DNA of 64,000 nt from an uncultured bacterium (GCA_964548195.1 CAZJQC010000007.1:3219-67218), one strand, 5' to 3'; counted from the first letter of the stretch, positions 22,798 through 34,857 are shown. A program made the numbers and translations. Notes: generated by a model from the letters alone, not told the origin.

Positions 22798-24979
22798 AGC
22801 CGCATCCCTTTCGGGAACAGACCGTTTTTTTGCCTTTCTCCACCAGATATTCACCACATTCGGGACATACTGCTCCGGTGGGTTTGTTCCAATCCACAAA
22901 ATCACATTGCGGATAACGGTCGCATCCGTAAAAATATCTGCCTTTTTTCGATTTTTTCCTCACCACATGACCGGTGCCGCATTTGGGGCATGTGACGCCT
23001 ATCTTCTCATCCACTTTTTTTGTGTATCTGCATTCGGGATAACGTGAGCACGCGATAAACTCTCCGAACCGTCCCCTTTTTTTCACAAGGCCGCTGCCGC
23101 ATTCCGGGCAAGTCCCCTCCACGGTCAGATTCCCCTCCACGGGCACCGGCTTCCCGTCCGTCATCTCAAAATCCATCGTGTTTTTACATTCGGGATAACC
23201 GCTGCATGCCAGAAACCTTCCGTTGCGTCCCCATCTGATTATCATGGGCATGCCGCATTTGGCACATTTTATCTCGGTCTTTTGTATCACGGACTCCTTG
23301 ATGGAGGGGATGTCCTTTTCCGCATCCTCAAGCCAGCCCGTCAGGTCGTCATAGAACTTTCTCAGGATCTCCTTATGACCGGATTCGCCGTTTTCTATGT
23401 CGTCAAGGTCGTTTTCCATATTTTCGGTAAATTCATAATCGACTATGCGCGGAAATAATGATCTTACCGTGTCATTCACGATCATGCCAAGATCCGTGCA
23501 GATCAGTTTCCTTGCCTCTCTCTGAACGTATTGCCTGTTTATAAGTACCGTTATTATCTGCGCATACGTGGAAGGGCGGCCTATGCCGAGCGCCTCAAGT
23601 TTTTTCACAAGGCTCGCGTCCGTGAAACACGCCGGCGGCTGGGTCTCTTTTTCATCGGGAAATATGCCGTCGCATGCCTTTTCCTTCCCGATCTCGAAAC
23701 CGCTTATATCCATCGGGGAATCATCCCTCGCGGCCCATCGGTAAATATTCTCAAAGCCGTCGAACACCCTCACTGCCCCTTCAGCCTCGAACAGATGTCT
23801 ACCGTTCAGAATGGACAGGACCGTGTTCTGATAAATGGCAGGCACCATCTGTGACGCCACAAAACGTTCCCAGATGAGCTTGTAAAGCCTGTGCAGGTCT
23901 TTTTCCATCATGTCCGACAAAGAATCCGGCGTTATAAAGACTGATGTGGGGCGTATGGCCTCATGGGCGTCCTGTATTTTTGTCCCCTTCTTTTTTGCGT
24001 AGAAATTCGGCTTTTCAGGCAGGTATCTCTCCCCGCGGTCCCGGGCTATAAAGGCGCGGGCGTCGTTCAGGGCTTCCTGGGAGACCCTGAAAGAATCCGT
24101 TCTCATGTATGTGATCAGGCCGGTATTCCCCCCCGGCAATGCGATCCCTTCATAGAGGCGCTGGGCCAGCATCATCGTCTTTTTTGCGGAATAGCCCAGT
24201 CTGTTATACGCCTCCTGCTGAAGCGTACTCGTTATAAAAGGCGGTTTCGCCCTTTTTTCCCTCTTTGCCGAATCGATGCTTTCAACGATAAAGCTGCCGG
24301 AAGAGAGCTCCTCCATCACCGTCAAAAAGTCTTTTTCCTCAGTTATGCGCGACCGTTTTCCATCCGTCTTGACCAGTTTTGCTGTCACATCTCCAAACGC
24401 GGCGGTGATCTCCCAGTATTTTTCCGGTATAAAACCGTCTATCTCGGCCTGCCTTTCGGCGATCAGCCTCAGGGCCGCGGACTGCACCCTGCCCGCGGAC
24501 AGCCCTTTGTACATGATACGCCACAATATGGGGCTGATCCTGTAACCCACAAGCCTGTCAAGTATGCGTCTTGTCTGCTGCGAATAGAACATGTTCATGT
24601 CAATATCGGAAAGCTCGTTCAGCGCCTCGTTGATCCCCTTTTCAGTTATTTCCGTGAACCTGGCCCGCTTGATCTCCACCCCGGAGTCAGCCAGTTTGCG
24701 CATGATGTGATAGGCGATCGCCTCGCCTTCACGGTCGGGGTCGGTGGCAAGTATCACCATGTCAGCCTTCTCTGATTTTTTCTTTATCTCGTTGATCACG
24801 GCGGCTTTACCCTTGATCGTGACATACTGCGGCTCAAGCGTGTCCGGATCTATACCCAGCTTTGACTTGGGAAGGTCTATCACATGGCCTACGGAGGCCA
24901 TGACATCATAATTTCTTTTGACTATCTTTTTTACCGTCTTTACTTTTGTGGGTGATTCCACGATGATAAGCCCCTTCAT
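22784..24979 (-). CDS. topA: DNA topoisomerase I
   Basis: IVESPTK, ATDPDREGE, AGRVQS, catalytic ITYMRTDS, C-terminal zinc ribbons. Confidence 0.97.
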   Translation of the reverse strand: MKGLIIVESPTKVKTVKKIVKRNYDVMASVGHVIDLPKSKLGIDPDTLEPQYVTIKGKAAVINEIKKKSEKADMVILATDPDREGEAIAYHIMRKLADSGVEIKRARFTEITEKGINEALNELSDIDMNMFYSQQTRRILDRLVGYRISPILWRIMYKGLSAGRVQSAALRLIAERQAEIDGFIPEKYWEITAAFGDVTAKLVKTDGKRSRITEEKDFLTVMEELSSGSFIVESIDSAKREKRAKPPFITSTLQQEAYNRLGYSAKKTMMLAQRLYEGIALPGGNTGLITYMRTDSFRVSQEALNDARAFIARDRGERYLPEKPNFYAKKKGTKIQDAHEAIRPTSVFITPDSLSDMMEKDLHRLYKLIWERFVASQMVPAIYQNTVLSILNGRHLFEAEGAVRVFDGFENIYRWAARDDSPMDISGFEIGKEKACDGIFPDEKETQPPACFTDASLVKKLEALGIGRPSTYAQIITVLINRQYVQREARKLICTDLGMIVNDTVRSLFPRIVDYEFTENMENDLDDIENGESGHKEILRKFYDDLTGWLEDAEKDIPSIKESVIQKTEIKCAKCGMPMIIRWGRNGRFLACSGYPECKNTMDFEMTDGKPVPVEGNLTVEGTCPECGSGLVKKRGRFGEFIACSRYPECRYTKKVDEKIGVTCPKCGTGHVVRKKSKKGRYFYGCDRYPQCDFVDWNKPTGAVCPECGEYLVEKGKKTVCSRKGCGYATE

Positions 24980-25374
24980 AGGGTGCCTCCGTCCTTGGTT
25001 ATTATTATCTCGGTCCTGCGGGATAATCCGGCCGAAGAGATCCGTATGACCGGGAAAGCGATGAAAAAAAACAATGCCGCGAATATCATGCCCGGAATCT
25101 CGCCCCCCGGGAATATGAGTTTCCCCGTAAAATAACCGGCGATAAGAAAGATCACCGGCAATAAATAAATAAGAAATACCAGCTTTTTATAATCAGTGAC
25201 TACCTCGACGATGACTCTGTCGCCGGCGCCGCAGTCCCAGTTGAAAGACTCGCGGGGGACCTCCATGTCCACACATGAACCGCACATATTGCATTTGGTA
25301 CACGCCTCATCGGCAAAAGTGGCCAACACGACGGTCTCCCCCTTCAATTCCTTTATCACACCCTTTTTCGTCAC
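24976..25374 (-). CDS. RseC/MucC family membrane protein
   Basis: CTKCNMCGSC cluster, GDRVIV, IYLLP, two TM helices; GTG start at 25374. Confidence 0.75.
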   Translation of the reverse strand: MTKKGVIKELKGETVVLATFADEACTKCNMCGSCVDMEVPRESFNWDCGAGDRVIVEVVTDYKKLVFLIYLLPVIFLIAGYFTGKLIFPGGEIPGMIFAALFFFIAFPVIRISSAGLSRRTEIIITKDGGTL

Positions 25375-25913
25375 CTGGCCGCCTTCCTCTTGTAAAATCC
25401 CATTATACAGCCCAGCGCCACCGACCATAATGCGGCCATGCCTATCCTGAGCGGGACCGGCATCAGAAACGTAAGGGTGTGGGCAGGTATCCAAAACCAC
25501 AATAATGTCATCAACGATCCCTTTATCCCGCCGTATCCGGCATGCCCGGAAATAATATTGTCCGAAAACCGGTGTAAAAACATCATCTGCGGGCCAAAGA
25601 GCAGGTTCATGAAACAGGATACCGCAAAAGCCCTGAGAAATCCGCCCGCGAATAGAGGCGGAAGAAGCTCCGCCGACAAAAGTCTGTCTGTAAAACCGAC
25701 AAACCCGGTAAATGCGAATTTTATCGTTATCCCCAGCATACCCCAGGCCGCGGCCTTCAATAAACCTGCCTTAAGACCAAAAGGTGCCCTGCTGGATGCC
25801 GAGGCAATAAAAGAACCAAGTATTTCCCCGATTGTCCCCAGCAAAGCAAACTGCAGAAATGCGGACAACAACACATGTTCAGTCACAAATCCAATGTAAA
25901 TATCCATAATCAC
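25371..25913 (-). CDS. Mpv17/PMP22-like membrane protein
   Basis: MNLLFGP, FWIPAHTLTF...LRI...WSVALG; multi-TM. Family recognised by eye. Confidence 0.6.
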   Translation of the reverse strand: MIMDIYIGFVTEHVLLSAFLQFALLGTIGEILGSFIASASSRAPFGLKAGLLKAAAWGMLGITIKFAFTGFVGFTDRLLSAELLPPLFAGGFLRAFAVSCFMNLLFGPQMMFLHRFSDNIISGHAGYGGIKGSLMTLLWFWIPAHTLTFLMPVPLRIGMAALWSVALGCIMGFYKRKAAR

Positions 25914-25944: not shown

Positions 25945-28900
25945 TCAATTAGTCAAGCCGGGACTTTTCCTCAAATGCCTTAAATGCCCCGTAATAAGCC
26001 TTGCCAGTATGTTAAGGAGGTTCGCCTCCACATAGGTGTATTCCTTCTTTTTTATGCCGCTTGAAAAGTATATGTGCAGATAGATCCCCTCTTCCTCGAT
26101 CGCCACAAGGAGGTCGGAGTTCATACCCTTCATATCCTCCTCATATTTCCAGTTGATGGCTATAAGCGATTCTTTAGTCCGCTTCGCATAATCTATGTAC
26201 TTGGCTATGGTCATGATCTTCGGGTCCCTGTACTCATACTCCTCCGTGCCGACCCTTATCTTGAAATCAAGGTGCTCATATTCCAGAAATCTGCTCAGCA
26301 TGCCGTGAAGGGTCCAGAAATAGCTTTTGACATCGGACGGTTCAAGCATGGTAAGCTCGATCAGGTTTCGTACTATATCCTCGGTCATAGCTATGTCACC
26401 GGTTATTATTCCGGCAAGTATGTCGTGTTTTCCCCGGTACAAGCCGTATTTTTCCTCCCAGAATATCAGCCCTTCACCCTCTTTTTTGGCCCTGTTCAGA
26501 GCTGAGACCCCTTTTGAAAGCACTATTTCCAGTTTTTCACCGTGGTCGGGCACATAACTCATACCCATGCTTACGGAAACATTTTTGTCCGACAGATAGG
26601 CATCCTGCCTTAATATCCTGAGCAGCTGTTCCGCCTTCTCCATAAGCTTTTTTTTCGTCACCCTGGGCACCGCCACCACAAATTCCTCCCCGAGATATCT
26701 CCCTATGATATCTCCGGGATCCGCATTGTCGCGCATGATCTGCGCGACTTTTCTGATAATGCCGTCACCCTCGATCTCTCCGTATTTTCTGTTCAAGTCA
26801 GACATGTGATCTATATCCGCTATAATAAAGCCGATTGTCTCATCTTTTCTTCTCTGGGCTATTTTCTTTTCAATGGCATTGAGAAAATAATACCTTGTGA
26901 ACACGCCGGTGAGGGGACAGATGATGATCTCGTCCCTTATCTCCTTATACCGTGTGAGAAGACCCATGTGCTGCACCAGAGGAAAGATGTATTCCGTCAG
27001 TTCCTTTTTGATGTTGTTGCAATATTTTTTTGTGTCCATATACAGGAATCCTCTGACAGCGTCGTTTAAATAGGTCTCCGTCAGGTCTTCTTCCTCAAAT
27101 TCCTCGGCAAAGCCGTAATCAAGCATGGGGAAGACGGCGGCCTTTACAATATTCGAGGAAAATGTGGAATAATCGCGTATGGTCATCATCCCCGGAGACT
27201 TGATGACGGTATAAAGCAGGTCGCTTCTGTACTCCTCATCGCCAAACACCTGTCTTTCAGTCACCTCCTGGACCTTTACAAACCGTTTCGACGAATCGCG
27301 TAAAAACAGCGTCACACGATCGGATTTTGAAAATTCAAGTATGTATTTAAGTATGTTCTTTATTGTCTCGCCTATGTTCATGTACGCGTAGTTCCAGTCT
27401 TCAATAAGTGCGAACATGTCCTTTTTATAAAATCTTGCCATGTTCGAGGAGTATTCTTCCTGCCACAGACCGCGCACAAAGTTGAACGTTATTTTCCCGG
27501 AGGGCACGCCCAGCATCTCGGCTATCGCCTTTTTACGTTCGGATATGTTCCTGTGTATATGTGTCTTTTGATGGAATCTGATATATCCTTTGGGGAAATT
27601 GTTTTTTATATGCTGTTCGTAAAACAGTATGTCGGTGCAGACCTCGTACAGCCGATAGTTAAATTGTTTTTTCTCATACAGTTTTGAGAGTTCTATAAGC
27701 ACGTCGACTATCTTACGGTTTTTCTTCTCTCTTTTATACCGGGATAACAGCCGTTCAAGTATCGCGATCTTTTCCTCATCGGTCCTGACAAAATAAATAC
27801 TGTGGAACTCAAGGTTTATGTCTCCCAGATCGGTCTGCCTGTCCGCGCTCAGTGTCTTCAGCCGGTTGAACAGGTCCCGTGCCTGCGTCTTCTTTCCCAT
27901 ATGGTTGAACAGTATGTCGACTTTCTTCAGAGAGATGTCAAAATACTCATAATTATAAACCCCGCGGGTCTCTGATTCCGACATCATCCTGTCATAGTAT
28001 TCCAGAGCCTTCGCGGGCTTGTTCCAATAATAATAGATGTCGCCCATGGATGCGTTGTATTCCTGCATGTACTGCCAGTAGTTCATCTCACGGGCCGTCT
28101 TTCTTATCAACGTGCACAGGTATCTTGATTTTTTAAAATCGCCCATCTGGACCAATATTCCAATGGCCTGTTTCAATACTATCAAATACTTCTTTTTGTC
28201 ATACTTTCCCACATAACGCATGGCTTCGGCAACGGTTGAATACGCTTCTTTGAACCTGAAACTCTCCGCATGGAGTTCCGCGATATTGGCCAGGGGGACG
28301 ACAACGCTCTGCAGGTCTCCGGCATGTCTGCCGATCGAAACAGATTTATTGAGCTCCTGAATGATCTCATCGGCGGAAAAGCCGATGAAATATTTAGAAC
28401 TCGCGATGTTGTTATGGGCTATGATCTGATCCCTGGGACTGTTTACGGAAGCCGCCGCCTCCAGAGCCGCGGTATAGGCTGATTTCGCCTTTGTGGCATC
28501 GCCCACGTTTAACAATATGTTTCCCTTCATCACCAGCGCGCTGATAAGCGTCTTCACAAAACTGGTCTCATCAACAGACAATACCGTCAATTCTTCTATG
28601 AAGGCATCTATCGCCGATTCGATATCCTCATATTCCCCTGACGTATATAGATGTGAAAAAGCATCGGCCCTTATCTTCGCTTTATACGGCGACATCGCAT
28701 GGGCAGTGTCTTTTGCCAGTTTTAACGCTGAAAGATGCTTGCTTTCCCCCTTTTCCATCAGAAAATCAAAATAATCCGACAAAAAAGCCCCCTCAGTCTT
28801 TATCCTCCCGCCGGCCGCAAGCTGGCGCAGTTTTCTTATCCTTTTCAGCGAATCCTTGTAAAGCTTTTTCAGACGTCCGTATGTCGTCGAGAGATAGTAC

Positions 28901-31005
28901 CACAACTCCGCGGATTCAACATTTTCAGCGCCCGCGACATACTCGGGGAAAATGCGTTCAACAAACGCCCATAACGCTTCAAGCTCATTCATGTGGTCAA
29001 GGATGATAAGCATGGACTTCCTGAAAAGCCAAAGGCGCCCGAAACTTTCCTTATAGTCGAAGACCTTCTCAAGATGTGTCTTGAGCGTCAGGTAGTCGGA
29101 ACGGCTCAGGGTGTAGCGCGACAACAGCTTGTCTATATACTGCAGCGCCTGAGGATATTTTTCACCGTCCATGGCCAGGTCTACAAGTGTCAGCAAAACA
29201 GTGGGGTCGTCGCTTTCCTGCTCCAGGAAGGCCACGTATTCCTTGACCAGATCCGTGCTTCCCACCTTATCGTAGGTCTTCACAAGGTCCTTTATGTCGT
29301 CCCTGACTATCCTGTAATATGCCTGGTCGTTTTCCCATATCTCGTCTATATAGGCGTGGCTTCGCAGAGAACCAAGATAACCCAGCACATCGTCTTTGCC
29401 CTTTTTCACAAGGCTTATGAGATCCGCCAGTGTGCATACCTTTCTGCTGTGTGCTATGTACCATAATATGCACATCTCCTCCGCCCGAAGAAACTGAAGT
29501 TTCTTTTCAAGCGTGTCATCTCTGGAGAGATAGTCTATGTTTTCCTCTATGGCAGCCTGGTCAAGACGTATCGCGCCGTCTTTGCCCGGATACGCAAGCT
29601 GTTTCTCAAACAGTTTCTGCACCATTCCCAGTATGCTGAGGGGCTGGTTCATGTCAAACCGCCCCAAAAACTCCATAAGCGCCGACATGTCATATTCCTT
29701 GCCTATTATCCCTTTTAAAAAGGCTTCGGTCTGAGACGCGTCAAGCGGAAGATATTCCTTCGTCACGATCTCAAACCGGGGATCCTTATAGAACACATTG
29801 AAGCGGTTTTTTTCCATGCCGGCGTCAAAAAGCAGGATCACATTGCCGTTATACTGCATATGCATCATCATATTGATAAATCTGTTTATCCTGTCATCCA
29901 TGCCGAGTACGTTTTCCACGTGAAGGACGATCTTCTTGGTTATGGAAAATTCAAACAGAAACTCAAGGAGTGAATTCTGCACCTTCAGCAGATATTGCTC
30001 GTAAAGCGTCTCGGTATAAAGTGTAAACTGACGCTCTATCATGCGGGAAAGATCCGGATTGACGCCATAATGCCTGATGCATTCAAAAAGATATTTCAGA
30101 AAGTCGTAAAAATCCTGTATCACGATCTCTATCTTCATGTACTTTTCCATCTTTAAAAATTCCAGAAAATCATGTATCAGTATGTTTTTAAAAGACCTGG
30201 AACTTCCCAGGAACATAAAGGCTATCTTCGAATTCCTCTTTATCTGAAAGGAATAGAGGTCTTTCAGTATTTCAAGATGCAGCGACTGACCCATCTCGTA
30301 AGAAGTCCAGTTTTTCTTTCGGTATATATATGAATACCGTTCCCCTCCGTACAGCCCGTCGGCTTTCATCATATCCAGCAGTGACTCTATATCCCCTGCG
30401 CCGGTCTTCCGCAGATATCCCGCATATTCTCCCATATCGGGGAAGATGTCCGCTGATATCCTTTCGATAAACGCGGCTGTGTTCATTACAAGTCTCTTAA
30501 AACCTGCGATGTCATAAACGGGGGAGAACTCTACATCCAGCATGTCCATCTTCAATGCCTTGCCGTCCGTGACAAAGATCTTTTCAGGATCGAACTCATA
30601 TACATACATCTTTCTCCCGTACAGGAAAAAGATCAGGTCCCAGAAGAGGTCCAGAAAGCGGCGGCAGTCCTCCGCCGAGAACCCGGGTTTCGCAGCGGCC
30701 GCGAGGAGGTCGTTGCCTATTATATACTCGCTGATCAGGACATAATAACTTGAATAGGTCAGATTTCCGTCGACCATCCAGATCTTTTCAAGATTATAGT
30801 ATTCGATCAGGTTCGGGTGCCTTATGTTCCAGGCGGCCTCATGTCTTTTTATGATCTCGGGTTTCCCCTCGTACATGTCAAAGATCTTGAGGAGCACGGT
30901 CTTGTTTTTAAAATTATCCTTCGCAACGTAATGGGAGACGGTTTCCTTGTCCGCCAGTCTCTTTAAAAGCAGGTATCTGTCGTTTATGGTCTTCATATGC
31001 ACCAT
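25945..31005 (-). CDS. Giant signalling protein: pseudokinase, degenerate STAND ATPase, TPR, GAF-like and degenerate GGDEF domains
   Basis: Kinase N-lobe (INDRYLLLKRL, HPNLIEYY), helical repeats, GGDEF fold (CPLTGVFTR, ADIDH, GRYLGEEF, VSMG); true start may be 30996. Confidence 0.75.
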   Translation of the reverse strand: MVHMKTINDRYLLLKRLADKETVSHYVAKDNFKNKTVLLKIFDMYEGKPEIIKRHEAAWNIRHPNLIEYYNLEKIWMVDGNLTYSSYYVLISEYIIGNDLLAAAAKPGFSAEDCRRFLDLFWDLIFFLYGRKMYVYEFDPEKIFVTDGKALKMDMLDVEFSPVYDIAGFKRLVMNTAAFIERISADIFPDMGEYAGYLRKTGAGDIESLLDMMKADGLYGGERYSYIYRKKNWTSYEMGQSLHLEILKDLYSFQIKRNSKIAFMFLGSSRSFKNILIHDFLEFLKMEKYMKIEIVIQDFYDFLKYLFECIRHYGVNPDLSRMIERQFTLYTETLYEQYLLKVQNSLLEFLFEFSITKKIVLHVENVLGMDDRINRFINMMMHMQYNGNVILLFDAGMEKNRFNVFYKDPRFEIVTKEYLPLDASQTEAFLKGIIGKEYDMSALMEFLGRFDMNQPLSILGMVQKLFEKQLAYPGKDGAIRLDQAAIEENIDYLSRDDTLEKKLQFLRAEEMCILWYIAHSRKVCTLADLISLVKKGKDDVLGYLGSLRSHAYIDEIWENDQAYYRIVRDDIKDLVKTYDKVGSTDLVKEYVAFLEQESDDPTVLLTLVDLAMDGEKYPQALQYIDKLLSRYTLSRSDYLTLKTHLEKVFDYKESFGRLWLFRKSMLIILDHMNELEALWAFVERIFPEYVAGAENVESAELWYYLSTTYGRLKKLYKDSLKRIRKLRQLAAGGRIKTEGAFLSDYFDFLMEKGESKHLSALKLAKDTAHAMSPYKAKIRADAFSHLYTSGEYEDIESAIDAFIEELTVLSVDETSFVKTLISALVMKGNILLNVGDATKAKSAYTAALEAAASVNSPRDQIIAHNNIASSKYFIGFSADEIIQELNKSVSIGRHAGDLQSVVVPLANIAELHAESFRFKEAYSTVAEAMRYVGKYDKKKYLIVLKQAIGILVQMGDFKKSRYLCTLIRKTAREMNYWQYMQEYNASMGDIYYYWNKPAKALEYYDRMMSESETRGVYNYEYFDISLKKVDILFNHMGKKTQARDLFNRLKTLSADRQTDLGDINLEFHSIYFVRTDEEKIAILERLLSRYKREKKNRKIVDVLIELSKLYEKKQFNYRLYEVCTDILFYEQHIKNNFPKGYIRFHQKTHIHRNISERKKAIAEMLGVPSGKITFNFVRGLWQEEYSSNMARFYKKDMFALIEDWNYAYMNIGETIKNILKYILEFSKSDRVTLFLRDSSKRFVKVQEVTERQVFGDEEYRSDLLYTVIKSPGMMTIRDYSTFSSNIVKAAVFPMLDYGFAEEFEEEDLTETYLNDAVRGFLYMDTKKYCNNIKKELTEYIFPLVQHMGLLTRYKEIRDEIIICPLTGVFTRYYFLNAIEKKIAQRRKDETIGFIIADIDHMSDLNRKYGEIEGDGIIRKVAQIMRDNADPGDIIGRYLGEEFVVAVPRVTKKKLMEKAEQLLRILRQDAYLSDKNVSVSMGMSYVPDHGEKLEIVLSKGVSALNRAKKEGEGLIFWEEKYGLYRGKHDILAGIITGDIAMTEDIVRNLIELTMLEPSDVKSYFWTLHGMLSRFLEYEHLDFKIRVGTEEYEYRDPKIMTIAKYIDYAKRTKESLIAINWKYEEDMKGMNSDLLVAIEEEGIYLHIYFSSGIKKKEYTYVEANLLNILARLITGHLRHLRKSPGLTN

Positions 31006-31007
31006 CC

Positions 31008-32165
31008 TTAAAGGGCAAGTCTGTAAATATTGACAATATCATTGAAATCAAGTCTCTTGAAAGAGCCTATGGCACCGTGTTCATCGACGATATTCGCCGC
31101 CATCTCGTCAACGGGAGCGTTACCGGCTCCCGCTTCCGAAAGGCTGCGGGGAAGCCCCAGTTTGCCGTAGTGATCCGTAAGCCTGTCTATGACTCCTTCA
31201 GGGTCTTCCGGAGCCAGCTCGCCCCACAGGGCGGCGCCCAGCCTTTTGAACTTCCAGCCGTTGTCACGGTCAAGCACATATTTCATCCAGGCCGGATAGA
31301 GCACGGAAAGGGATTCTCCGTACGGCACACCGCATTTCGCATTCAACTCATGCCCCAGCGTACGGACAGCCCTGTCGGGCCTTTTCCCGAGAGACAAAAA
31401 ACCGTTGCCGGCGACCGAAGCCGCCCACATCATCTCCCCCCTTGCCTCAAGATCGCTGCCATCCGCCCTGAGCCTTTTGGAAAGCCCCATCATCGTTCGC
31501 AGAACGGCTTCACACATATGGTCTGTGAATACCGATGTGGATCCGGAGGAGAAATATTGTTCAAAAACATGCCCTGTTATGTCAGATATCGCCGAAGCGG
31601 TGTTTCTTCGGTTGACTGAAAGCGTGTAGGACGGATCCATTATTGCAAATTTGGGTACTATGGCATCCGCGTATATCGCGCACTTGCGTCCGGTATCGCT
31701 GTTTGTTATCAGCGCGCAGCCATTGGCTTCCGAACCCGTCGCGGCATGGGTGAGTACCACACCCACCGGGACAGCCCTGGTGACGGTCTCTCTTCCCAGA
31801 AACATATCCCACACCCCCTGAGAGGAATGGACTCCCGCCGCAATGGCCTTCGCAGTGTCTATGACGGAGCCGCCGCCCACCGCCAGTATCAGATCCGCCC
31901 GGTGTTCTTTTACGGCCCTGACCCCCTCCTTCACCCTGCGCAACGTGGGGTTTCCCGTGATTCCGGAAAATTCGGCGCATGTGATGGCATATTTATTCAA
32001 TTCTCTTACGACATCTGAATAGATCTGATTCCGCTTTATGCTGCCCCCGCCATATACCAGCAGGACCCTGCTCCCGAATTTTGCGGCCTCTTTGCCCAGA
32101 TGTTTTACCTGTCCGCAGCCAAAAAAGACCTTTGTCGGGAGACAAAACTGAAAATCCGTCATCAC
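31008..32165 (-). CDS. Iron-containing alcohol dehydrogenase family (Bdh/YqhD-like); two metal His ligands appear substituted
   Basis: PTKVFFG, YGGGSIK, VGGGSVID, ATGSE, DITGH, LGHEL. Confidence 0.88.
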   Translation of the reverse strand: MMTDFQFCLPTKVFFGCGQVKHLGKEAAKFGSRVLLVYGGGSIKRNQIYSDVVRELNKYAITCAEFSGITGNPTLRRVKEGVRAVKEHRADLILAVGGGSVIDTAKAIAAGVHSSQGVWDMFLGRETVTRAVPVGVVLTHAATGSEANGCALITNSDTGRKCAIYADAIVPKFAIMDPSYTLSVNRRNTASAISDITGHVFEQYFSSGSTSVFTDHMCEAVLRTMMGLSKRLRADGSDLEARGEMMWAASVAGNGFLSLGKRPDRAVRTLGHELNAKCGVPYGESLSVLYPAWMKYVLDRDNGWKFKRLGAALWGELAPEDPEGVIDRLTDHYGKLGLPRSLSEAGAGNAPVDEMAANIVDEHGAIGSFKRLDFNDIVNIYRLAL

Positions 32166-32182
32166 CGCTCCTTTACATATCT

Positions 32183-32210
32183 ACTATACCCGCAATGACA
32201 AAAAAATCAA
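32183..32210 (-). promoter_or_regulatory. Predicted promoter of the Fe-ADH/giant-protein operon
   Basis: TTGATT-N16-TATAGT. Confidence 0.6.
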
Positions 32211-32235
32211 ATAAATACGGGGCGCCCCTTTCTGC

Positions 32236-32264
32236 TTGCAATGCTCTCTTTCGCCATTTATAAT
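32236..32264 (+). promoter_or_regulatory. Predicted divergent promoter of the M28-like gene (leaderless geometry)
   Basis: TTGCAA-N17-TATAAT; ATG follows 6 nt after the -10 box. Confidence 0.6.
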
Positions 32265-32270
32265 ATTTTC

Positions 32271-33716
32271 ATGAAAAGATCTTTCGCGTTTTTTTTACTG
32301 ATCACACTGTTCTCCTGCTCGGGAAAGGACCTTTTTCCCGAATACAGGAAGGCCATCGCTCAATACGACCCGTATAATGAAATAGAAAAGGACATTCACG
32401 GCATCATGAATGAAAACACCTCGGGACGCCTTCCGGGAACAAGAGCTTTCGACATAGCAGCTGATTACGTGGCTTTCGAGTTCCAGCAGTCGGGGCTCAC
32501 AAAACCCTATTTTTTGGATAACTATTTTCAGTATTTCTCTTTTGAAAACGGCGTGCTTTCCGCAAACGCATCCCTTTCCATAGGCGCGACAAAGCTTGAG
32601 GCAGGCAAAGATTTTGTGGTATGTCTTTCATCCGGCGGGACGGTATTGAAAAACGCCCCGCTCGCTTTTGCCGGATACGGGTTGTCCGAACCGGGAACGC
32701 GTTTCAACGACTACCTTTATACCAATGTCACGGGAAGAGTCGTATTGATGTTCAAGGAACTGCCCGCAGAATTTCTGATCAAATACCCGCGTTACAGCAA
32801 TGACGCCTACAGAGCATATATTGCAAAGAATCACGGAGCGCTGGGTGTCATCTTCATCGACACATCAAGTTACAACGCCAACGAATCAAAAAATTCGGCT
32901 TATGTGCCGGACCTTGTAAACATCGACAACTTTCCGCAAATGATCATAGGAGGCCGGACACTGGGAAAACTCCTTGAGGACGAAGGCATAGACCTGCTGG
33001 CCGCAAAAGAGGATATCGACCGCTCAAAAGACCCCTACCCCATTGACCTGCGGTCGAAGATCACCCTTTCCGTCCCGATCGTGCGGAAGACACACCGCAC
33101 GATGAATATACTCGGGTACATACCGGCTGACCGCGACGTCTCCATGCCAAGGAATATAATATTCGCGGCCAATCTTGACTCACTGGGCACACAGGGGGAA
33201 GAAAGTTATGAGGGCGCGGTATACAACGGATCAGGTGTAATAACCCTGTTGAACCTTGCCCGGCTCTTTACCGGCTTCAGGGAAAAAGGCTACAGGGCCA
33301 ATATCTGGTTTGTGGCATTTTCAGCCACGGAAGAGGGATTTAAAGGCGGATATGAGCTCTATGACACCCTTGAGTTCGACGGAAACAATACGGATATATT
33401 CATAAACATAGAGGGCACCGGAGCCACGGACAATGTGTTCGAGATCGGCGGGGGGCTGGACCATCCCGCCCTGTTCGAAGATCTGAACAATGCCAACGAC
33501 GACTTCGGACTGGGCCTTGACCTTGCAGTCTCACGCGGCTCTTACGGAGAAGGGCAAATATTTGCGGCCGCGGGCATACCGTCGCTTTATGTTTACGGAA
33601 AATCCGAAAAAAACAAAAACACCGTGGTCGACACGCCCGATAAAATACATAAAGAGGGCATTTCAAACATCACGAAACTGCTTTTTGCCGCTTTTCGCGA
33701 AAAGATCTATAAGTAA
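32271..33716 (+). CDS. M28 peptidase-family lipoprotein with PA domain; zinc ligands appear lost
   Basis: Lipobox LFSC, GRLPGT, PLAFAGYG, NILGYIP; motifs altered to ANLDS, GAVYN, ATEE, KNT. Confidence 0.8.
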   Translation: MKRSFAFFLLITLFSCSGKDLFPEYRKAIAQYDPYNEIEKDIHGIMNENTSGRLPGTRAFDIAADYVAFEFQQSGLTKPYFLDNYFQYFSFENGVLSANASLSIGATKLEAGKDFVVCLSSGGTVLKNAPLAFAGYGLSEPGTRFNDYLYTNVTGRVVLMFKELPAEFLIKYPRYSNDAYRAYIAKNHGALGVIFIDTSSYNANESKNSAYVPDLVNIDNFPQMIIGGRTLGKLLEDEGIDLLAAKEDIDRSKDPYPIDLRSKITLSVPIVRKTHRTMNILGYIPADRDVSMPRNIIFAANLDSLGTQGEESYEGAVYNGSGVITLLNLARLFTGFREKGYRANIWFVAFSATEEGFKGGYELYDTLEFDGNNTDIFINIEGTGATDNVFEIGGGLDHPALFEDLNNANDDFGLGLDLAVSRGSYGEGQIFAAAGIPSLYVYGKSEKNKNTVVDTPDKIHKEGISNITKLLFAAFREKIYK

Positions 33717-34857
33717 AATATAACATGGACAACATAAATATGCCGGAATACCAGAACACTATAAACGATCTTCCCGGCTGAAAATGCAGTATGAACCTGC
33801 TGTCATCGAATATAGCGAGATAACCCGTAAAAAGGGCGGCGGCTTTTTCCGAAAGCGGCACGATAAAAGCGGCAGCCCAATGCGGCATAGGCAGCAGCAG
33901 CATCAGCCCCAGCAACACAAGCGGATAGAGAAATATAAGTGAAAAGATGTTCATGACAGGGGACATGACATTGTACTTGCCGAAAAATACGCATATCAAC
34001 GGAAAAACCGCTGCCTGGGCGGACAATGTGACCAGCAGCATCCTGAGAAGGATGTTGCCTGTCTTTCTGATCACATCAGCCATAAGTATTATACCCAGCG
34101 TCGCAGTCATGCTCAGCCAAAAACCCAATGAGTGAAAATATGATGGGTTGACGGCTATCATCACCATGCCTGATAATGCCCAGATATTGACCGGGTGTGA
34201 CGGACTTTTTAACAACCGCGAGAGCAGAAAAAACATGATCATGAGATATGCGCGAAAAGACGAGACATAAAAATCGGTGACAAACAAATAAAGTGTCATA
34301 AAAAACATCATCATCACTTGTCTTATATTATATGCGATTTTTTTCAACAAAACCCCGAATATTGTCATTACCATGCCGAAATGCAACCCGCTTATGGCGA
34401 TCAGATGATAACTTCCCGTGTTTGAAAAGAGCTCCTTTGAGTCGGCGGAAAGGAAATCCCGTTTGCCGGTGGCAATCGATTTAACGATGCCGTATAGCTC
34501 GCCGCTTGAAAAATATCCGGCTTTTTCCACCAAGAACCTCTTGAGAAAAAACGGATCGTGAAAAAACACGCCACGATATACGGAATAATAGGCGGCCGAT
34601 GCGAAGAAAAGAGCCGTCAGTGTGAAAAAAAGGCGCGGCATCCTGCCACGAGCGAGCAGAGACAATACACAGGCCTGTAAAGATAAAACACCCGCCGTGA
34701 AAAAAGGCGGGCGTAAAAAGAAATCAAACATAAGAGGCAGAGACATCACAGCGTATATCAACGCCGAATCATACACTCTGATCCCTACGCGCGGATAACG
34801 GGAGGCCGAAAGCCCCGCAACTGTTACAGACCCAGTCGTCTGCCTTCCTTGTCGCAC
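33670..34857 (-). CDS. comEC: ComEC/Rec2 competence protein (core domain only; start uncertain, possibly 34746)
   Basis: TGSYHLIAISGLH, SSFRA, NP...SLGFWLS, LSAQ, SPVMN. Confidence 0.85.
   Translation of the reverse strand: MRQGRQTTGSVTVAGLSASRYPRVGIRVYDSALIYAVMSLPLMFDFFLRPPFFTAGVLSLQACVLSLLARGRMPRLFFTLTALFFASAAYYSVYRGVFFHDPFFLKRFLVEKAGYFSSGELYGIVKSIATGKRDFLSADSKELFSNTGSYHLIAISGLHFGMVMTIFGVLLKKIAYNIRQVMMMFFMTLYLFVTDFYVSSFRAYLMIMFFLLSRLLKSPSHPVNIWALSGMVMIAVNPSYFHSLGFWLSMTATLGIILMADVIRKTGNILLRMLLVTLSAQAAVFPLICVFFGKYNVMSPVMNIFSLIFLYPLVLLGLMLLLPMPHWAAAFIVPLSEKAAALFTGYLAIFDDSRFILHFQPGRSFIVFWYSGIFMLSMLYFTYRSFREKRQKAVS

Follow-up and report, generated by a model that had tools for sequence, protein, structure and literature searches.

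Three adjacent enzyme-fold genes at one locus

The window analyzed here is a 64,000-nucleotide (nt) stretch of DNA from an uncultured bacterium (GCA_964548195.1 CAZJQC010000007.1:3219-67218), and our subject is the three uninterrupted, full-length open reading frames (ORFs) that lie next to each other at positions 25945-33716. They encode a giant cytoplasmic protein, a protein with the fold of the iron-type alcohol dehydrogenases (Fe-ADH), and a divergently transcribed lipoprotein with the M28/PA fold. An earlier description of this DNA (hereafter, the sequence-only reading) had noted that all three are uninterrupted, that each carries substitutions at catalytic or metal-binding residues, and that the enzymes encoded nearby keep their motifs; our alignments bear out the substitutions, the ORFs are full length, and the motifs are in place in PhoA (TDSAAA), asparaginase (TTGGTIA), and TldD (HESVGH) of the window.

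25945-31005, minus strand: giant cytoplasmic protein, 1686 amino acids (aa) from the first ATG, 1683 aa from the probable start at ATG 30996
31008-32165, minus strand: Fe-ADH-fold protein, group III (Fe-type), 385 aa, probable start at ATG 32162; PF00465 and PF25137
32271-33716, plus strand: M28/PA-fold lipoprotein, 481 aa from MKR, the ORF opening at 32241 (491 aa); PF04389

Whole-genome searches across the order returned orthologues of all three genes in one further genome of the same genus (G001; the window's own genome is G000), in three sister-genus genomes, and in five genomes from two other families (f2 and f3), and the three ORFs are intact in every genome with orthologues. None of the three proteins reaches an NCBIfam equivalog cut-off. 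Selection was estimated as omega (dN/dS, nonsynonymous over synonymous substitution rates) from G002 and G004, the closest usable pair, with the branch lengths of protein trees used alongside; dN/dS between G000 and G001 is unusable at a dS of >2.4.

An M28/PA lipoprotein without a zinc site

The M28 protein matches PF04389 with 54.6 bits (cut-off 21.3); its PA domain match falls below the cut-off (18.6 vs 23.9), and the protein aligns over its full length with PA-M28 proteins. These include the aminopeptidases of Aneurinibacillus (2EK8), Bacillus subtilis (BSAP/YwaD), Legionella (LapA), and Pseudomonas aeruginosa (PaAP), all of which carry the PA insert within the M28 fold. Residues were mapped by alignment to 2EK8 and to the nearest intact PA-M28 relatives. 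The first ligand His is replaced by Asn311, the bridging Asp by Tyr328, the last His by Asn460, and the catalytic Glu by Thr363, while Glu364 is retained and the remaining Asp ligand position holds Glu391. The window protein differs from the aminopeptidases in having lost three of five zinc ligands as well as the catalytic Glu within a preserved fold, and in being lipid-anchored: its signal peptide begins at MKR (32271) and leads into a lipobox, LFSC, whose Cys is invariant among the orthologues.

None of the ten M28 orthologues has the bridging Asp, the catalytic Glu, or the last His. The orthogroup is confined to four clusters among 1.84 billion representative proteins, after which the score falls from 669 to 254 bits, and the nearest relatives outside the order (23-27% identity) retain all motifs. 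Omega is 0.105, and the tip branches of the M28 tree are 0.26 and 0.68. Reuse of the M28 architecture for binding after loss of the zinc site has eukaryotic examples in the non-peptidase relatives of the transferrin receptor and nicastrin type. The window protein has no direct relationship to these and represents an independent loss within a bacterial order. With fold and pocket kept, it is probably a binding lipoprotein.

We also observed that the first ligand His (THLDG) survives only in the M28 orthologues L042 and L043 of family f2 (genomes G005 and G007), and these two proteins lack the other catalytic residues. Dismantling of the zinc site thus proceeded in steps.

The giant protein and its degenerate domains

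The second ATG of the giant ORF (30996) is its probable start in place of 31005; it gives the MKTIN found in all orthologues, and the sequence AAGGA lies 8 nt upstream of it, inside the stop region of the Fe-ADH gene. Orthologues are full length in seven genomes and present in pieces in two more, without stops; when 185,579 species genomes were scanned for related proteins, an unrelated cyanobacterial GGDEF match was all that emerged. Its domains are as follows (pLDDT, predicted local distance difference test; NTPase, nucleoside triphosphatase).

30316-30996, minus strand: pseudokinase domain, aa 4-230 (orthologue profile, Foldseek, and hhalign)
29506-30300, minus strand: NTPase-like beta-alpha-beta domain, aa 236-500 (AlphaFold2 secondary structure, pLDDT mostly 75-90)
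27526-29208, minus strand: helical TPR region, aa ~600-1160 (Pfam TPR_12, TPR_1, and TPR_MalT, weak, all below cut-off)
26986-27408, minus strand: GAF-like domain, aa ~1200-1340, then a long helix (AlphaFold2 model)
26446-26952, minus strand: degenerate GGDEF domain, aa 1352-1520 (PF00990, E 1.2e-27)
25948-26445, minus strand: C-terminal alpha/beta domain, aa 1521-1686 (AlphaFold2, pLDDT mostly 75-92), for which the Pfam scan gave no family match

The N-terminal domain has a kinase fold by three comparisons: the orthologue profile matches Staphylococcus aureus PknB/Stk1 (E 1.2e-8), the AlphaFold model (mean pLDDT 76.7) finds PknB-type bacterial kinases in Foldseek (E ~1e-8), and hhalign relates it with a probability of 98% to a paralogue in the same genome that matches Pfam Pkinase. 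ADKETVSHY stands in place of GxGxxG and YEFDPEK in place of HRDxKxxN, degenerate in all orthologues, so that the Gly-loop and the catalytic-loop Asn are gone and the HRD Asp is Phe138. Lys40 occupies the VAIK position, which is Arg in six of the eight aligned orthologues, and Asp154 is invariant; equating it with the DFG Asp requires a one-residue gap relative to the paralogues. In the following domain, the predicted beta-alpha-beta order fits an NTPase fold, and neither Walker motif is canonical: the Walker-A-like GSSRSFKN has a bulky residue for the Gly before Lys in all orthologues, and the acidic position of the Walker-B-like VLHVEN..GMDD is E, Q, or K among them. A profile search of PDB sequences with this domain returned no match, Pfam gave only faint P-loop matches (AAA_7 0.058, PhoH 0.081), and the fold search with the whole N-terminal model was swamped by kinases.

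Toward the C-terminus, the model finds the GAF-GGDEF protein Dcsbis (4zmu) as its best Foldseek match (E 1.3e-12). The GGDEF fold is clear, with 97 bits to PF00990 (cut-off 23.8) and a Foldseek template modeling score to the target of 0.8 for SadC, WspR, and PleD. The signature is RYLGEEF (1436-1442), which departs from GG(D/E)EF even with Ala or Ser tolerated at the first position, and all eight orthologues with sequence here have [LM]G[DE]EF. Aligned with SadC and 3ign, the giant has Ser for the Lys of DxDxFK (DIDHMS, 1397-1402) and Glu for the Arg of the C-terminal GRN (KEGEG), the replaced pair being phosphate and transition-state contacts; metal-binding Asp1397 and Glu1440/1441 are kept, as are guanine-binding Asn1405 and Asp1414, and the RxxD I-site is lacking (DPGD at 1429-1432). 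Omega is 0.052 for the whole giant, 0.123 for the pseudokinase, 0.035 for the NTPase-like domain (the lowest of the N-terminal half), 0.051 for the TPR region, 0.022 for the GGDEF domain, and 0.034 for the C-terminal domain.

Degenerate GGDEF domains serve as receptors or regulators in PelD, PopA, LapD, CsrD, and GdpS, and the GEDEF domain of Caulobacter PdeA senses GTP. The giant resembles these in keeping a GGDEF fold with a broken signature under selection; it differs in lacking the I-site, an EAL partner domain, and a membrane anchor, and in that its GGDEF domain ends a chain of kinase-like, NTPase-like, TPR, and GAF domains. Its NCBIfam matches all fall far short of the cut-offs. Hanks-type kinases fused to NTPase and TPR domains are known from the PknK-like proteins of Mycobacterium tuberculosis and the MalT-like STAND proteins. 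The giant shares with them the order of kinase, nucleotide-binding-like domain, and TPR, as well as the weak TPR_MalT match, whereas it has lost the catalytic loop and Gly-loop of the kinase, departs from the Walker consensus, and carries an added GAF-GGDEF output.

Since the substitutions are order-wide and purifying selection is strong, the M28 protein and the giant are, judged from their sequences, old and functional non-enzymes, the former a long-standing non-peptidase outside the cytoplasmic membrane and the latter a non-catalytic protein under strong constraint. In both, the loss of catalytic residues recurs in every orthologue of the order (ten genomes for the M28 protein, nine for the giant) and dN/dS is below 1, which is what the sequence-only reading had proposed to check for the trio; for the Fe-ADH-fold protein, the recurrence does not extend to the sister genus.

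Two metal ligands replaced in the Fe-ADH-fold protein of one genus

The Fe-ADH-fold protein scores 169 bits with PF00465 and 94 bits with PF25137, so that both the N- and the C-terminal Fe-ADH domain are recognized. Its best structural relatives are the NADP-dependent aldehyde reductases YugJ of B. subtilis (7W9X), YqhD of Escherichia coli (1OJ7), and TM0820 of Thermotoga maritima (1VLJ), at E 1e-80 to 1e-54, with which it has the fold, the GGGS motifs, the Asp, and the first His in common. YugJ is the closest (E 1.4e-80), and the alignment is gap-free around the four ligands. YugJ coordinates its metal, nickel, through Asp194, His198, His267, and His281 and is inactive once demetallised (PMC8836905). 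At these positions, the window protein has Asp195, His199, Arg268, and Tyr282, and hence two of the four ligands are replaced. The NAD(P) motif GGGS is intact at residues 39 and 97, and the protein scores 216 bits against PRK15138, for which the cut-off is 645.

The loss of ligands is restricted to the genus of the window. In the sister genus, where the gene order is the same, the four ligands are intact, and orthologues from the sister genus and the other families all keep D, H, H, H, and GGGS, the omega of intact copies being ~0.06. The syntenic copies form one clade in the protein tree, in which the stem of the window's genus measures 0.43 vs 0.16 for the sister genus. The two tips of the genus differ widely, at 0.19 for G000 and 1.67 for G001, in comparison with giant tips of 0.30 and 0.35. 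The G001 copy (L031:1501-2649; G001 contig C128:3284-4432) occupies the same position, is 39% identical to that of G000 (vs 63% for the giant), reads GDGA in place of GGGS, and keeps hardly any metal ligand. The simplest reading of these branches would be that function changed along the stem of the genus, with renewed constraint in G000 and strong relaxation or further change in G001 afterward. The state in which all three proteins are broken exists only in this one genus.

Two alternatives bear on this gene. The Fe-ADH-fold protein could still be an enzyme, with its metal site re-made or absent, lying beside the giant for expression only, in which case two of the three proteins would be pseudoenzymes. 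Both GGGS motifs, Asp195, His199, and also His272 are kept, the G000 tip is as short as that of the intact orthologue G003 (0.18), and the protein is 54% identical to an intact sister-genus protein. We nevertheless find this unlikely, with perhaps a minor share of the probability, because one of the two lost ligands has become Arg, which is not a metal-binding residue, metal-free YugJ has no activity, the genus stem carries a burst of change, and the same-genus orthologue went on to lose GGGS and more ligands. The other alternative, that relaxed selection is turning one or more of the three genes into a pseudogene, would be suggested by the G001 tip, which at 1.67 substitutions per site is about ninefold longer than that of G000, and by the low identity of the two copies. 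We consider it highly improbable: no genome has a disrupted ORF, omega is 0.05-0.1 for both the M28 gene and the giant, the G000 tip is normal, and the 382-codon frame of the G001 copy has stayed open through very extensive change, an outcome incompatible with neutral drift. For G000 itself, decay of the three genes was rejected on the intact ORFs, the low omega, and the normal Fe-ADH tip.

The explanation that we regard as probable is instead that three separate catalytic-site losses of different ages lie side by side in one family, those of the giant and the M28 protein being old and that of the Fe-ADH-fold protein dating to the stem of the window's genus. The non-catalytic reuse of enzyme folds put forward by the sequence-only reading thus remains sensible, with the M28 gene and the giant constrained order-wide (~0.05-0.1) and a normal Fe-ADH tip in G000. 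As for the Fe-ADH-fold protein, it probably binds NAD(P)(H), carries no metal, and shares a transcript with the giant, to which it may possibly pass redox or aldehyde information.

Gene order and the divergent promoter region

Adjacency of the three genes is confined to one family, where five genomes from two genera show it. In the other two families, the three genes are present on different contigs or far apart; the giant there follows rpsA and nth, a WG-repeat gene, or glycosyltransferase genes, and the Fe-ADH and M28 genes lie mid-contig on other contigs. The recurrence that the sequence-only reading proposed to look for therefore stands for one family, and the conserved linkage on which its module depended is absent in two of the three families. 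Within the five genomes, the Fe-ADH stop and the giant start are 8-14 nt apart on the same strand. In the window, the distance of 2 nt stated in the sequence-only reading applies to the first ATG of the giant, while the probable start at 30996 gives 11 nt.

32166-32270, no strand assigned: divergent promoter region between the Fe-ADH and M28 genes (consensus scan; conserved in five genomes of two genera)

In this region of about 100 nt, TTGATT-16-TATAGT forms the minus-strand promoter for the Fe-ADH gene and the giant, and TTGCAA-17-TATAAT forms the plus-strand promoter for the M28 gene. The five genomes all retain the two sigma-70-like hexamer pairs and the ribosome-binding site of the Fe-ADH gene, and a search for a shared operator across the same genomes found nothing conserved beyond these elements.

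The M28 promoter (32236-32273) has a further peculiarity, in that its -10 box ends 7 nt before ATG 32271, with TATAAT kept in the five genomes. Given this distance, the M28 mRNA is probably leaderless.

These observations bear on the proposal that the three proteins make up one module, with the M28/PA protein as the binder of an external ligand, the Fe-ADH-fold protein as a cytoplasmic binder of NAD(P) or alcohol, and the TPR/GGDEF giant as the output. In its favor are the adjacency of the trio in two genera, the conserved divergent promoter region, the uniformly short Fe-ADH-giant spacing, and the constraint on all three genes. Against it, the genes are dispersed among other neighbors in f2 and f3, the sister genus has the same arrangement with an intact Fe-ADH, the divergent region holds two promoters and a ribosome-binding site without a visible shared operator, no member of the trio spans the membrane between an outer lipoprotein and the cytoplasmic proteins, and the constant partner of the M28 gene is comEC. 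The differing ages of the losses, together with an adjacency found in one family only, make a single three-part module unlikely, and we hold it to be quite improbable. What stands of the signaling module is the tight, operon-like pair of Fe-ADH and giant in five genomes; the M28 gene, with comEC as its order-wide neighbor and no membrane-spanning link, would fall outside it. The Fe-ADH-giant pair is the only one that looks coupled, and a two-gene unit is plausible.

A loose precedent for such a pair is ErcA-ErcS of P. aeruginosa (PA1991/PA1992), in which a group III ADH-fold protein with a regulatory role is encoded beside a signaling protein (Hempel et al. 2013, J Bacteriol 195:3925, cited in PMC12997753). 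The likeness is that of an ADH-fold protein encoded next to a cytoplasmic signaling protein. The differences are that the window protein reaches 157.5 bits against NF041833, with a cut-off of 550, and is not a member of that family, that it lacks two metal ligands, and that the giant, unlike ErcS, is not a histidine kinase.

Neighboring genes and paralogues of the giant

33670-34857, minus strand: minimal comEC (Competence domain only; PF03772), convergent with the M28 gene with a 47-nt overlap
24976-25913, minus strand: two small membrane ORFs downstream of the giant (translations; PF04246), with topA, xerC, and hslV next

The convergent overlap of the M28 gene with comEC, which encodes 371-395 aa, is found in all three families and measures 42-54 nt (33670-33716 in the window; L042:1489-1542; L046:1489-1530). 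The linkage of M28 to comEC is much older than the trio. On the other side of the locus, 25371-25913 encodes a 180-aa multi-helix membrane protein without a family match, and a RseC/MucC-like protein with CTKCNMCGSC is encoded within 24976-25500. G004, G006, and G008 have the same pair of ORFs 3' of the giant, the second of them being RseC-like by Pfam in G000 and G008, and G005 (family f2) has a single 160-aa ORF at this place. The order-wide constant 3' of the giant is accordingly a small membrane ORF followed by topA-xerC-hslV, with two such ORFs in f3 and in f1, the family of the window. The trio arose by the joining of two conserved blocks in one family. As listed, the two downstream ORFs of the window overlap by 130 nt, so that translation of the RseC-like protein probably begins at a more internal codon.

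The genome of the window (G000, 1.9 Mb) encodes 14 GGDEF proteins, ten of them with R[YWI]GG[DE]EF, and among its proteins are four paralogues of the giant with 1454-1696 aa, a kinase-like N-terminus, and a C-terminal GGDEF domain:

G000 C1:85663-90774: giant paralogue, 1696 aa
G000 C8:17895-22316: giant paralogue
G000 C12:38001-42749: giant paralogue
G000 C51:1048-5418: giant paralogue

Three of the four keep an intact GGDEF signature, and the same three match Pfam Pkinase. A paralogue of ~1700 aa was found in every genome that has the giant. In the paralogues C1, C8, and C51, the Pkinase match ends at about position 155 of 263, which indicates a shortened kinase domain.

The giant would then be a dead member of a paralogous family of ~1500-1700-aa proteins with kinase-like, NTPase-like, TPR, GAF, and GGDEF domains, the other members of which look active, and it may act as a cytoplasmic STAND-type scaffold or sensor. 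GGDEF domains act as dimers; as the guanine pocket is also retained, pairing with a paralogue or nucleotide sensing are the obvious options for the giant. Instead of synthesizing cyclic di-GMP, its GGDEF domain would most likely bind a nucleotide or pair with its counterpart in an active paralogue. A more elaborate reading, to which we attach little probability, would make the Fe-ADH-fold protein a subunit of the giant dedicated to sensing NAD(P)H or an aldehyde, with the giant as a non-catalytic hub that controls cyclic di-GMP output through pairing with the active paralogues and, separately, the M28 protein as an extracytoplasmic partner of the minimal ComEC channel.

Weight of the evidence

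Several points speak against the picture of three separate losses in which none of the proteins is any longer a catalyst. Tyr can ligate metals, and some proteins of the Fe-ADH fold, the maleylacetate reductases, work metal-free, so that the Fe-ADH-fold protein may retain some chemistry. The NTPase assignment in the giant is a prediction drawn from modeled topology and faint matches only. The AGDEF cyclase VCA0965 of Vibrio cholerae is active, and an altered first Gly is hence no proof of inactivity (PMC3974145). The dS values of 1.2-1.9 are near saturation, which makes all omega values given here rough, with dN still far below dS. The order is sampled by about ten genomes, all of them drafts in 70-400 contigs and several incomplete. 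Finally, the tight spacing of Fe-ADH and giant in five genomes leaves room for a real two-gene unit, and the M28 protein may have a role there.

Significance

Pseudoenzymes of bacteria have received much less attention than those of eukaryotes, and this locus is of interest on three counts. The giant is a protein in which every recognizable catalytic domain is non-canonical, yet it is among the most constrained genes measured here, order-wide. The M28/PA protein is a bacterial member of its fold that has no zinc site and is kept as a lipoprotein, and its conserved partnership with comEC deserves attention. As a general point, three broken enzymes in a row need not form one machine. The Fe-ADH gene provides a natural series at one genomic position (intact, without a metal site and constrained, and fast-diverging), which makes it a system for following the change from enzyme to non-enzyme. 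If the Fe-ADH-fold protein is indeed a sensor subunit of the giant, the genus of the window would show the birth of a pseudoenzyme subunit while the intact enzyme is still present in the sister genus.

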